From: Promethearchaeota archaeon
GTDB lineage: Archaea; Asgardarchaeota; Hermodarchaeia; Hermodarchaeales; Hermodarchaeaceae
Direction: 5' to 3'
Length of the DNA stretch: 64,000 nt
Assembly (NCBI GenBank): GCA_048938385.1
Contig: JBHLMG010000012.1
Span: 1 to 64,000, forward strand
Below, in pieces: positions 52,681 to 57,038 of this stretch (position 1 is its first letter; every line of letters begins with the position of its first letter). The notes below the pieces were generated by a model, which made no database searches, was not told the origin of the DNA, and saw only the letters and a program-made list of their open reading frames with translations. A program made the translations under genes and the position numbers.

Positions 52681-54150
52681 TCATTCTGCATAGCGTTTAA
52701 TTCCCTTCAACCGGCAGACTTCATGTACAATCATCTCTAGGATCTTATCATCACTTTTTATACCGGGTGGTGAATCAACGATTTTACTCAGTTGGAGAGG
52801 AATCCCATCCATCCGGTAAGCGGTTTGTATACCATCGGCTTCAATTCCCACATACGATGATGGTAACGCAACATCTGCAATTTCTGTGGTCGCACACCGC
52901 TTTGGGTCGAGAACAATGACGGGTATCTTCATCATGTGTTTTACTGCGGCGGATGGGAATGAAGCTGCTGGGTCTGCAGCAATTGCAAAGACAGCGTCAG
53001 CCTCACCGCGCACTAGAATGTCTACAGCGCTTGTTTCTCCTGGCATATAGTAGGGAGCACCATGTTCTAGACTCACCGAAAAGGGATATCCGTAAGTCCA
53101 TGTGGAAACATGGTTAGAACCTGTCACATTAAAGTGACCACGCATTGGCATAATCACGGCTTTAGTGTAATGGTTCAAATCAGCGGTTAAATCAATAGCT
53201 GCAATAACATTGTGGTCTTTACCGTGGGTTTGGGTTAACCCAAGCCCAAAGAAAATCGTAGTAAATTGTGCGTTCTTCAAATCAGCAACAAACTCTCGGA
53301 TTTGGCGCATAGGTACTCCCGCTACTTCCGACGCTTGTAGTTCCTTGCCTCGAAGAAGGGCTCGTACTGCTTGGAGTAGCTCATAATCTTTGTTAGGTTC
53401 AACAATAATGGAATTTGTTACCTGGTCTGTAAACCGAGTCGGTCGCACATCGATGTGGTAAACTTTTCGATCTTCTACTTGACGGAACAAACCTTCAATG
53501 AATTGAGAATACCGACGCGTATGGCGTGGGTGTGCAGCAATTGGGTTGCACCCCCAATAGACGATCATATCGGAGTAGTTCTTGATTTTTCCCAGCGTGC
53601 ATGTTCCGATACCAACCCGCTGAACCGCTTCGATTCCAGGTCCATGGCATACTGATGATGTATTATCCACAACTGCACCTGATACTTCTGCGAGTTCAAG
53701 GGCTCTTACATTAGCCTCATTTGAAGTGCTTGCTAAACCGTAAATCAATGGCCGTTTAGCCTGGGCAAGTATTTTTGCTGCGGTCTTCACAGCTTCCTCT
53801 AGGGAAACTTGCTTGACCTCAGATTTATTCGGACCCGTTCGGAGTTCAGGTTTATAGATTCGGTATTCATCACGCACTTTCAAGAACTTCGTATGACCAA
53901 TCCGACACGCGTTCAGCGCTTCAACAATAGTACCTTCTGGAACTCGAGGTAGGGGACCAGTCATAGTAACCGCTACTTCGATGTCATCACACAGGCAGCC
54001 GCTATGGCTGTGTACACTATTTAGTGTCCACACATGCCACGGCTAGACAGGATGTCTATACCTGAATGGGCAGATGACATGCTTGATGACACGAGCTCGC
54101 GGAGTCGATAGGATCCCATCAGCGTCGCCTCGATGTGCATTGGAGTCCAT
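52681..54150 (-). CDS. fwdB: Formylmethanofuran dehydrogenase subunit B, split: join(54150..54064, 54034, 54002..52681), 469 aa after splicing
   Basis: Exon 1 ends VIKHVICPF; the downstream part has GCLCDDIEV, NACRIG, SSVCHGP, WGCNP..AHPRH, MRGHFNV, TAYRMDG; RBS GGGAG before the ATG at 54150. Confidence 0.92.
54003..54033 (-). other. BHB-type mRNA intron B (31 nt) in fwdB
   Basis: Outer helix UAGCCG/CGGCUG, central helix UGGC/GCCA, bulges AU^G and UA^G, intron stem UGUG-G-ACACU/AGUGU-A-CACA. Confidence 0.85.
54035..54063 (-). other. BHB-type mRNA intron A (29 nt) in fwdB
   Basis: Central helix CCAU/GUGG, bulges UC^A and CA^U, intron stem GGU(A)UAGACA/UGUCUAGCC; contains an in-frame UAG. Confidence 0.82.
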
Positions 54151-54310
54151 AACTCCCACTATTCCAAGGGTACAGATATAAAATGTTAGTTTCCACCAGG
54201 TTGCAACTTCCCTGTCGCTTTCGACAATTAAAAAACTGGTTGTGAAGCTGGGAGGTGCTTGGCAACCATACTCAAAGAATATCGATTACAGTTAATCGAG
54301 CTAGCAATTC

Positions 54311-56506
54311 TTAGGGAACTAGAACTGAAAGAAGTCCGCTTAGTCCAAGGTTTAAGGCAAAGATCAAAGGGAGGAAGAGCGTAGCTGTCAATGAAATCAC
54401 AGTCAATAGTGTATTAATGGATGGACCTGCAGTATCCTTGAAAGGGTCCCCGATAGTATCGCCTGTGATTGCGGCCGCATGGATATCACGATAGTTAGGT
54501 TTTTCGTGATCGTATTCAGGAGATTCGATGAATTTTTTCGTATTGTCCCAAGCTCCACCTGCATTATCCATAAACAGGGCTAAGATTAAACCTGTGATTA
54601 CAGCCCCGGCTAAGTATGCAGCAAGAGCTTCTAGACCCAAAATGGCACCGGTAACGATAGTAACAAGTATGGCTATCACGGTTGCAGGTAGCAGTTCCCG
54701 TAAAGCACCACTAGTTGCGATCTTTATCCCCCGCTCATAATCTGGAGATTTCGTTCCATCTAAAATCCCGGGTTGCTCTCGAAATTGCCGTCGAATTTCG
54801 TGGATGAGTTTATCAGCATTCTTTTGGACGCCCAGAATCAGCGTTGCAGAGAATGCAGCTGGGAGCATTCCACCAATCAGAGCACCTGCGAGGACGACAG
54901 GATTCAACAAATCAATGAAGATAGCTCCTCCTGTTAGGTTTGCGGCAAGTTCAACATAGGCGGCAAAAAGGGCGATGACTGTAAACCCTGTAGCACCTAT
55001 GGCAAAACCCTTCGTGATGGCCTTTGTTGTATTACCTAGGGCGTCAAGCCGGTCACACGCCTCAATTGCTTCCTTGGATGATCCCGCTTGTTCGATAATT
55101 CCGCGAGCGTTATCAACGATAGGACCATACGCATCCGAGCTAACAACTAGTCCATTGGTTGCTAAGAGGCCTACAGCGGCGATTGCTACAGAGAACACAC
55201 CACCATACCAAAATCCGATTGGTCCTGGAATCGGAATCAAGACTCCAAGGTAAAAAGACGCAACGAGGGCAACTACAATACCGATGATTGAAGGAATCGT
55301 GCTCAATAGTCCGTACGAATAGCCAGACAACACAAGGGTCGCTGGACTTGTTTCTGAGGCTCTGACCATGCTTTGTACTGGTTGTATACATCCCGCGCCA
55401 TAGTCGCTGGTGAAGACATCAGATACAAATCCAATAAGTACTCCGGCGAGGAGTCCAAGAACGCCAGAAATTGGAATGACAATGGGTAGTTGTAACAGAA
55501 CTAGAACAACCACAACAAGAATTCCAAACAATCCTGTGGCTAAGTAGGTGCCATGGTTAAGGGAACAATTCGCATCACAATAATCATGGGTTCGTACGCC
55601 AAAGACACCTATCACTGAAGCGATCGAACCAAGCGTCGCAATGATAAGAGGAATCATACCATAGGGAATTAAGGTGTAGATTCCATTTGAAATGAGAATT
55701 GCGTCAATACCTGCACCCAAGATTGCCGCTGCTAAGATTGCTGCAATGTTACTATCAAAGATATCAGCACCTGTTCCTGCCACATCGCCCACATTATCGC
55801 CTACAGCATCTGCAATTGTCGCAGGATTGCGTGGATCGTCTTCAGGGATATTCTGTTCGATTTTCCCAACTACATCTGCAGCAACATCTGCAGTTTTCGT
55901 ATAAATTCCACCACCTGCTCGAGCAAATAAGGCAATACTACTTGCCCCAAAGGAAAATCCTGCAATGATTTCCCAAAGTGCCACTGGTGGGAGCCAAAAG
56001 AAGAGAACATTCCACGCTAAGTAGAGTCCTGCAATTCCAATAAGGGCTAAACCGCTTATAATTAAACCCATAACGGATCCTGCACGAAATGAAACCCGGA
56101 ACGCTGGATTCACTCCACCTACCGCTGCTGCAGCGGCTGTACGTCGGTTTGCTCGTGTAGCAACAAACATGCCTACATACCCCGCTATCATACTGGAAAA
56201 TGCACCGATAGCAAAGGAGATTGCTACAACCACTGCCAATGAAACGAGACCAGATCCACTCGGACTGAACTGAGCCAAAAGCTCAGACAATGCAATGATG
56301 ATTCCCATGATCACTACGAATACGGTGAGAACTCGGTATTGAATGCTTAGAAAGGATTTAGCTCCTTCCTCAATGAGCTTGCTAACTTTCTTCATTTGAG
56401 CATTCCCCTCATCCGCTTTCATGACTAATCGAAAGAAGATGAAGGCAACAAGAATAGCAACAATCCCTGTGAAGATTGAAACGGCTAGGATTGATATTGG
56501 AACCAT
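54311..56506 (-). CDS. hppA: Membrane-bound H+-translocating pyrophosphatase (K+-independent signature)
   Basis: GGGIYTKTAD, IPEDDPRNPA, GDNVGD, YGPIVDNA, GNTTKA, GGAWDN, GDPFKDTAGP. Confidence 0.93.
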   Translation of the reverse strand: MVPISILAVSIFTGIVAILVAFIFFRLVMKADEGNAQMKKVSKLIEEGAKSFLSIQYRVLTVFVVIMGIIIALSELLAQFSPSGSGLVSLAVVVAISFAIGAFSSMIAGYVGMFVATRANRRTAAAAAVGGVNPAFRVSFRAGSVMGLIISGLALIGIAGLYLAWNVLFFWLPPVALWEIIAGFSFGASSIALFARAGGGIYTKTADVAADVVGKIEQNIPEDDPRNPATIADAVGDNVGDVAGTGADIFDSNIAAILAAAILGAGIDAILISNGIYTLIPYGMIPLIIATLGSIASVIGVFGVRTHDYCDANCSLNHGTYLATGLFGILVVVVLVLLQLPIVIPISGVLGLLAGVLIGFVSDVFTSDYGAGCIQPVQSMVRASETSPATLVLSGYSYGLLSTIPSIIGIVVALVASFYLGVLIPIPGPIGFWYGGVFSVAIAAVGLLATNGLVVSSDAYGPIVDNARGIIEQAGSSKEAIEACDRLDALGNTTKAITKGFAIGATGFTVIALFAAYVELAANLTGGAIFIDLLNPVVLAGALIGGMLPAAFSATLILGVQKNADKLIHEIRRQFREQPGILDGTKSPDYERGIKIATSGALRELLPATVIAILVTIVTGAILGLEALAAYLAGAVITGLILALFMDNAGGAWDNTKKFIESPEYDHEKPNYRDIHAAAITGDTIGDPFKDTAGPSINTLLTVISLTATLFLPLIFALNLGLSGLLSVLVP

Positions 56507-56536: not shown

Positions 56537-56938
56537 CTATGTTGGTGTACTACTGCGCATTTCAGTAAAAAGCTCCCTTAAGCTCAACACCGCCTTATCC
56601 GGGGCAGGTTTCACGGTGGCAGGTAGGCCTTTCATTGTGGGCATACCAGTGCTGTCGGTATCTCCACCAATAAGGCAGTTAGCCCAGGGTCCGTAGGGAA
56701 CAAATCCTATACCCACACTAGGTCGCGGGGCTTCTTCTGCACGAAGAACCACGCTTCCATATTGAGTGGTAACCTCAACAACATCACCGGGTTCGATCTT
56801 CAATTTTTCCATGTCCTTCAGATCAAGGCGAATCTGGGTGGTTGCTTCTTCATAGATATCACTGAGTTTTCCCGCTTCAAGTCCTACGCCTTGTCGACGG
56901 GTTCGACCGGTCAATAATAAAATCTTTAGGACAGACAT
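56537..56938 (-). CDS. fwdD: Formylmethanofuran dehydrogenase subunit D
   Basis: LLTGRT..QG..GK, FVPYGPWAN, TDSTGMPTMKG. Confidence 0.93.
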   Translation of the reverse strand: MSVLKILLLTGRTRRQGVGLEAGKLSDIYEEATTQIRLDLKDMEKLKIEPGDVVEVTTQYGSVVLRAEEAPRPSVGIGFVPYGPWANCLIGGDTDSTGMPTMKGLPATVKPAPDKAVLSLRELFTEMRSSTPT

Positions 56939-57038
56939 TCGACGACAGCACTCCGCAACTGGTGGCAACCGAATAACTAGGACCTTTAATAAATTTCTTC
57001 CTGAAGCACCGCCTGGTTGGAATTCTCAAGGTCCACTG

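Follow-up and report, generated by a model that had tools for sequence, protein, structure and literature searches.

Predicted ordered splicing of two overlapping bulge-helix-bulge introns around a single-nucleotide exon in the fwdB gene of an Asgard archaeon

In archaea, cbf5 has been recorded as the only gene with confirmed pre-mRNA splicing, which for other genes had been predicted (PMC2738675). The cbf5 pre-mRNA of Crenarchaeota contains one intron, which is inherited across two orders and has been confirmed at the RNA level (Watanabe 2002; Yokobori 2009, PMC2738675). Here we describe fwdB, the gene for subunit B of formylmethanofuran dehydrogenase, on the minus strand of a 64,000-nucleotide (nt) stretch of DNA (hereafter the window; positions 1 to 64,000 of contig JBHLMG010000012.1, assembly GCA_048938385.1) from an archaeon of the Hermodarchaeia. 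The likeness to cbf5 lies in the bulge-helix-bulge (BHB) shape, the protein-coding nature of the gene, the tRNA-splicing enzymes and the two-subunit EndA. Unlike cbf5, fwdB is a gene of carbon metabolism in an Asgard archaeon, and its predicted introns number two, overlap and occur in a single species. We consider it likely that 60 nt within fwdB constitute two BHB introns of its pre-mRNA, spliced in an obligatory order around an exon of 1 nt.

Pre-tRNAs with several BHB introns and small internal exons are also known from Thermoproteales and Asgard archaea (Sugahara 2007/2008; PMC11291895; bioRxiv 10.64898/2026.10.13.758758). In these, however, the mature tRNA fold helps to define the motifs, whereas in fwdB the transcript is an mRNA, the internal exon is 1 nt long, and one of the motifs has its 5' strand within the other intron. 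The introns of multi-intron pre-tRNAs are reportedly removed in order, as described by Tocchini-Valentini in 2009, with one motif forming only after the other intron has gone. The same relation was found in fwdB, in which the motifs of introns 1 and 2 (BHB-1 and BHB-2) are mutually exclusive and BHB-1 is completed by the removal of intron 2. In the twintrons of Euglena plastids, one intron interrupts a functional element of another, and the order of removal is obligatory. The fwdB introns are like twintrons in that removing one restores an element needed for the other; they are unlike them in that intron 2 is located outside intron 1 and interrupts the exon half of BHB-1, 1 nt past the 3' splice site of intron 1, and in that the chemistry differs. 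HAC1/XBP1 splicing (PMC4090602) likewise uses spliceosome-independent cuts at paired stem-loops and ligation by tRNA ligase or RtcB, but its endonuclease is IRE1, and it is eukaryotic, stress-regulated and limited to a single intron.

On the minus strand, fwdB reads ...CAT GTC ATC TGC CCA TTC before the insert and GC GGC TGC CTG TGT GAT GAC after it. Between TTC and GC-GGC lie 29 nt (intron 1, 54063-54035), a T (the single-nucleotide exon, 54034, with which the rebuilt Cys codon, UGC, would begin) and 31 nt (intron 2, 54033-54003), making the gene 60 nt longer than every homologue examined. Translation from ATG 54150 gives ...ILSTPRARVIKHVICPF up to the insert and an in-frame TAG six codons into it, and the frame resumes downstream as GCLCDDIEVAV. 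Exon 1 (54064-54150, minus strand) runs from ATG to TTC in 29 codons (translation MDSNAHRGDADGILSTPRARVIKHVICPF), and its stretch ILSTPRxR..KHVICPF is kept in congeners. Exon 3 (52681-54002, minus strand) starts with the GC of the Cys codon, continues with GCLCDDIEV... and extends to the stop codon. The DNA does not encode the N-terminal CxxCxxxC motif of FwdB contiguously, and only an mRNA spliced twice, as predicted, would contain it whole. A preliminary description of this DNA had given the coordinates and letters of the minus strand from 54063 to 54003, a TAG in frame within the 60 extra nt, and two BHB folds with their cut rule; on re-reading, the letters matched exactly, the TAG appeared in the translation from ATG 54150, and the folds had the expected geometry and yielded the product TTC-TGC-GGC.

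This geometry is common to both introns: each strand has a 3-nt bulge on the 3' side of the central helix, the predicted cut falls after the second bulge nucleotide, and outer (h) and inner (h') helices flank the core. In BHB-2, the outer helix joins AGCCG (54044-54040, within intron 1) to CGGCU (54001-53997) by five Watson-Crick pairs, with one further G-U pair, and the central helix joins UGGC (54039-54036) to GCCA (54008-54005) by four Watson-Crick pairs. The bulges are AU-G and UA-G (the hyphen marks the cut), and the inner helix pairs UGUG-G-ACAC with GUGU-A-CACA (4 + 4 bp). The 5' strand of BHB-2 is thus the 3' end of intron 1. In BHB-1, the central helix is formed by CCAU (54069-54066) and GUGG (54040-54037), with three Watson-Crick pairs and one G-U pair; the bulges are UC-A and CA-U, and the inner helix consists of GGU/GCC (3 bp) followed by a 6-bp hairpin, UAGACA/UGUCUA. 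Its outer helix pairs CUGC (54073-54070) with GCGG (54002-53999) and is uninterrupted only once intron 2 has been removed. The U at 54034 is at once the third nucleotide of the BHB-1 3' bulge and the second nucleotide of the BHB-2 5' bulge.

Both motifs need GUGGC (54040-54036) and are therefore mutually exclusive. Folding predictions bear on which comes first: BHB-2 imposed on the primary transcript has an energy of -23.3 kcal/mol versus -11.6 kcal/mol for BHB-1 (-24.2 versus -18.2 kcal/mol in the strain variant X5 described below), and the unconstrained fold already holds the outer and central helices of BHB-2 with a 3-nt 3' bulge, so that BHB-2 would be favoured to form first. We propose the following pathway. 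The stronger motif, BHB-2 (5 + 4 + 4 Watson-Crick pairs), would form in the primary transcript; EndA would cut it after ...GGCAU and after ...CCAUA, and RtcB would join the U to GCGGC. The outer helix CUGC/GCGG would now be contiguous and GUGG free to pair with CCAU, and BHB-1 would form. Second-round cuts after UUC and after GGCA would then allow UUC to be joined to UGCGGC, and the product would be UGC-CCA-UUC-UGC-GGC-UGC-CUG-UGU, encoding CPFCGCLC, with the second Cys ligand of the N-terminal [4Fe-4S] cluster restored (predicted peptide of the doubly spliced mRNA, HVICPFCGCLCDDIEVAV). As the first round would leave the lone U joined to the 3' exon, an exon of one free nucleotide would never occur; "single-nucleotide exon" is a description of the genome, and the proposed pathway ligates no free nucleotide. 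The reverse order, BHB-1 first, gives UUC-UGU-GUG-GAC-ACU-AAA-UAG with a premature stop, and it is a dead end because the 5' strand of BHB-2 leaves with intron 1. The occurrence of cleavage and ligation, their order and their efficiency are inferred.

In the predicted mature mRNA (53997-54073), the joined exons would form CUGC-CCAUUCU-GCGG, a stem of 4 bp with a loop of 7 nt. The sites of introns 1 and 2 follow positions 6 and 7 of this loop, respectively, and correspond to tRNA positions 37/38 and 38/39. This arrangement follows from BHB geometry, yet it may indicate which sites accept introns of this kind.

A genome-wide scan for BHB motifs, written without reference to the fwdB site (central helix with 4/4 pairs, outer and inner helices with at least 3 pairs, introns of 12-120 nt), returned exactly 54035-54063 and 54003-54033. 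Only two other candidates, of 99 nt and 112 nt, were found in the same neighbourhood. The former (53985-54083) is a loose BHB spanning both introns and the codons on either side; its excision would delete the whole CPFC..GCLCDD motif in frame, and it is probably due to chance. The 63 nt between TTC and GGC begin with AGG and end with AGC, so that a single excision of 60 nt can leave only AGC (Ser) or AGG (Arg). All ways of leaving TGY with BHB geometry required at each cut were enumerated by a script, and exactly one solution emerged, namely 29 nt, T and 31 nt, valid when intron 2 is removed before intron 1 and invalid in the opposite order. Single-intron readings were rejected, since they give only Ser or Arg and no single-intron BHB restoring TGY appeared in the enumeration. 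Among 200,000 shuffles of the 61 nt, 20 allowed the Cys codon to be restored in some BHB-consistent way, and a solution with two introns removed in order turned up in 1 of 400,000. In short, chance is an unlikely explanation for BHB motifs at the positions that restore the Cys codon. Searches of the window with Rfam and ARAGORN gave no matches.

The protein encoded by exon 3 scored 503.3 bits against TIGR03129, the FwdB equivalog (curated cut-off 327.8), over profile positions 8-420 of 421; as the match begins at position 8, just the first seven positions are absent. The closest solved structure to FwdB is PDB 5t5i_B (tungsten formylmethanofuran dehydrogenase subunit B; E-value = 3e-122), and exon 3 shows 88-91% identity to congeners with no internal stops. 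The gene is single-copy in the genome, the sole other match being a 28%-identical paralogue that is also present in relatives. As the preliminary description had supposed, the organism belongs to the Asgard archaea, the records of its relatives being metagenome-assembled genomes (MAGs) of Candidatus Hermodarchaeota/Hermodarchaeum, and gene callers do report a truncated FwdB, of 427 amino acids (aa) in Logan and 450 aa at NCBI.

The region upstream of GCLCDD was compared in 29 relatives (12 loci of the same genus, 4 of the sister genus and 13 of other families of the phylum), all of which carry TGY-CCN-TTY-TGY-GGN without interruption. CxxC-G is likewise uninterrupted in a further 160 of 160 loci from species-representative genomes and Joint Genome Institute (JGI) metagenomes, where the residue after Gly varies (C, S, A or T). 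The second Cys is invariant in all 189 fwdB homologues compared, and therefore the interrupted codon is that of an invariant cluster ligand, in keeping with the earlier proposal that a Cys of CxxCxxxC is rebuilt. The alignment of relatives that had been suggested as a check on intron presence found the insert in 0 of these 189 loci and only in the present species. A pattern built on the splice-site contexts matched nothing in the JGI metagenomes, and a protein-guided scan of them recovered two Hermodarchaeal loci only, both uninterrupted and neither of the same species. A search of this genome and of 18 others of the family found no donor copy of the insert. Absent from 13 species of the same genus and from every other lineage examined, the insert occurs in this species only, and on this distribution it is a recent, species-specific gain that took place after the split from the sampled congeners. 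Taken as a whole, the statement that overlapping BHB introns were gained recently in one Asgard species and are spliced in a hard-wired order round a 1-nt exon is one towards which we lean.

The insert is present in DNA assembled independently, and the runs that contain this DNA are sediment and mangrove metagenomes. Contigs from the runs X3 and X4 bridge it with zero differences, and the identical 61 nt occur in two Logan contigs and in the NCBI assembly GCA_048886565.1; beyond these 61 nt, two of the three sequences depart from the window at 2-3 sites. A contig of 621 nt from the mangrove metagenome of a separate study (X5; contig depth ~4) aligns without gaps to 53700-54233, where it has 17 substitutions, and represents a strain ~97% identical that also bears the insert. 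An assembly or binning artefact, which might be suspected since the genome is a MAG of 51 contigs and which the preliminary description had wished to see excluded, has a negligible probability, being refuted by contigs that bridge the insert without gaps in five or more runs or assemblies, one of them from another study and carrying substitutions.

Between the window and X5, eight of the nine listed exon differences are synonymous and one is non-synonymous (N-to-D); the sole difference in exon 1 is synonymous. This ratio points to purifying selection on the exons and argues against a decaying pseudogene. Four differences fall among the 61 nt of the insert and 13 among the 473 nt outside it. 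The change at 54036 turns a C-G pair of the BHB-2 central helix into U-G and affects a bulge nucleotide in BHB-1, another turns a G.A mismatch of an inner helix into G-C, and the remaining two alter both sides of one pair. The X5 insert keeps 30 of the 31 pairs of the model, a number matched by four random substitutions in 4.5% of trials, which is suggestive only of structure-preserving evolution.

Enzymes suited to the proposed reactions are encoded in the genome. Two proteins with EndA domains (PF01974, 107 and 67 bits) and one RtcB (PF01139, 579 bits) were found, so that the EndA and RtcB machinery invoked at the outset is present. The two EndA genes lie on contig 23 (325049-325303 and 190407-190667), and the RtcB gene is at 204997-206307. 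A two-subunit EndA has been reported for most Asgard genomes (bioRxiv 10.64898/2026.10.13.758758), and the two EndA-domain proteins fit this type. Many tRNA genes of the genome have introns of 26-32 nt. A second candidate mRNA intron lies in dnaG (contig 23, 180501-180528, minus strand), where a frame-breaking BHB insert of 28 nt is situated inside the FGQTEGLLG motif and where its removal by the same cut rule restores the reading frame through that motif. An insert of 28, 30 or 31 nt occurs at the same site in 18 matched family genomes (L196-L213); its loops vary freely, and compensatory changes occur in its stem, as in CTTCATATC/GATGTGAAG versus CTTTATATC/GATATAAAG. An essential gene that is out of frame throughout the family, together with a covarying hairpin, provides strong comparative evidence that mRNAs of Hermodarchaeia undergo BHB splicing. 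When additional mRNA introns were sought by open-reading-frame rescue, ordinary gene junctions overwhelmed the candidates whether or not codon usage was scored. Comparison with a shifted control brought no separation, and the dnaG intron itself ranked only ~23rd.

Several points weigh against ordered splicing of fwdB. The case is built on DNA sequence and predicted structure. Loose BHB motifs number 38,093 in the genome and 38,169 in a reversed-sequence control, and no genome-wide enrichment was found, the real and reversed counts being equal at every stringency; the presence of a motif is therefore weak evidence in itself, and significance comes from position. The signal of structure-preserving evolution stems from one strain comparison, with p ~0.05 and a contig depth of ~4, and the signal of selection lies almost entirely in exon 3, where it would fit a functional truncated protein too. 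BHB-1 is modest, since all three of its helices contain one G-U pair and the inner one also has a bulged A, and in the intermediate its imposed fold has -14.1 kcal/mol versus -20.1 kcal/mol for the minimum-energy fold. The primary transcript also allows a weak BHB-1, whose outer helix is reduced to C-G, G-U and U-G as long as intron 2 is present; its premature cutting there would yield a dead-end mRNA.

The alternative that survives best, although we judge it unlikely, is a recent lesion that is never spliced. FwdB would then not be made, or would be made in an N-terminally truncated form from GTG 54033 or ATG 53964, without two of the four cluster ligands, and the BHB-like folds would be incidental. 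Gene callers give exactly such truncated products, an insert confined to one species is hence young, and the genome-wide abundance of loose motifs shows how commonly they arise by chance. What chance does not readily supply is the coincidence of the Cys-restoring cut sites with BHB geometry (p <= 1e-4), and a lesion is hard to reconcile with the 8:1 excess of synonymous exon changes between two strains that both bear the insert. In enzymes with molybdenum or tungsten bis(pyranopterin guanine dinucleotide) cofactors (Mo/W-bisPGD), an N-terminal cluster supplies electrons to the pterin site. A truncated FwdB would lose this cluster, in a gene that is single-copy and whose CxxC is present in 189 of 189 homologues.

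Splicing might also be partial or regulatory, and we give this a small probability, slightly below that of a lesion. Intron 2 would be removed, whereas intron 1 would be removed inefficiently or conditionally, or BHB-1 would be cut prematurely, and FwdB synthesis would be throttled in this way. The weakness of BHB-1, which competes with other folds, and the premature stop that results from the reverse order are both consistent with such a throttle; the energy gap, however, favours BHB-2 first, no sign of regulation was seen, and constitutive ordered splicing fits the same data. A translational solution without splicing is very improbable. In this case the ribosome would hop over the insert, as in T4 gene 60, or would read through the TAG and add 20 residues, and the 60 nt are indeed in frame and include a hairpin and a stop codon soon after the interruption. 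No matching take-off and landing codons restore the frame on the Cys codon, though, the sole repeated CCA preceding the TAG, and read-through would give RYRHPVxPWHVWTLNSVHSHS with no Cys at the ligand position.

The neighbourhood of fwdB differs from that in related genomes. Upstream of fwdB lie an H+-pyrophosphatase gene (54311-56506) and, beyond it, a fwdD-like gene (56537-56968, minus strand). In congeners, a gene for a membrane protein of 288 aa (L004:441-1307) stands between the H+-pyrophosphatase gene and fwdB, whereas in this genome the two are separated by only 160 nt (54151-54310; compared with L004:283-1395), and the conserved upstream element of congeners, GGGCGAACCGCTTAAATGACAGAACC, is absent from this spacer. 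In one congener (L006) and in the sister genus, fwdD is found directly upstream of fwdB instead. A TATA-like TTTTATAT, read by eye, lies at 54183-54176, ~26 nt upstream of ATG 54150, and would be compatible with transcription of fwdB that starts at exon 1 and gives an mRNA with a short leader or none. ARAGORN identified 31 tRNA genes in the whole genome, about half of them with introns, and made some implausible calls with introns of 1.6-2 kb; the low tally and these calls suggest that standard tools miss many multi-intron tRNA genes.

Exons of a single nucleotide have been reported in Arabidopsis APC11 (PMC4674806), placozoan mitochondrial cox1 (PMC5436844) and Fusarium CYP621A (PMC12940212). 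As in fwdB, the single base is needed for a correct codon, but these are nuclear or mitochondrial genes whose splicing is independent of EndA and is not BHB splicing by protein enzymes. The papers found on Asgard archaea treat only tRNA introns (PMC11291895; bioRxiv 10.64898/2026.10.13.758758), and in the literature searched no single-nucleotide exon was described in a prokaryote. The same literature gave no earlier instance of tandem mRNA introns with a 1-nt exon in archaea, in agreement with the claim made when the locus was first noticed.

If the splicing proposed here is true, the exon of fwdB would be the first of 1 nt outside eukaryotes and the smallest yet in archaea, and its introns would be the first tandem or interdependent BHB introns in an archaeal mRNA within the literature searched. 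The machinery would cope with such an exon by means of an ordered two-step pathway encoded by RNA structure, and splicing by EndA and RtcB would reach beyond tRNA, rRNA and cbf5 to ordinary metabolic mRNAs of Asgard archaea. Mis-annotation of such genes as truncated, as with the products of 427 and 450 aa here, can distort metabolic reconstructions of uncultured Asgard archaea. BHB introns would, moreover, still be colonising protein genes at the level of species in the closest archaeal relatives of eukaryotes, and fwdB would give studies of how BHB introns arrive a case that can be dated.

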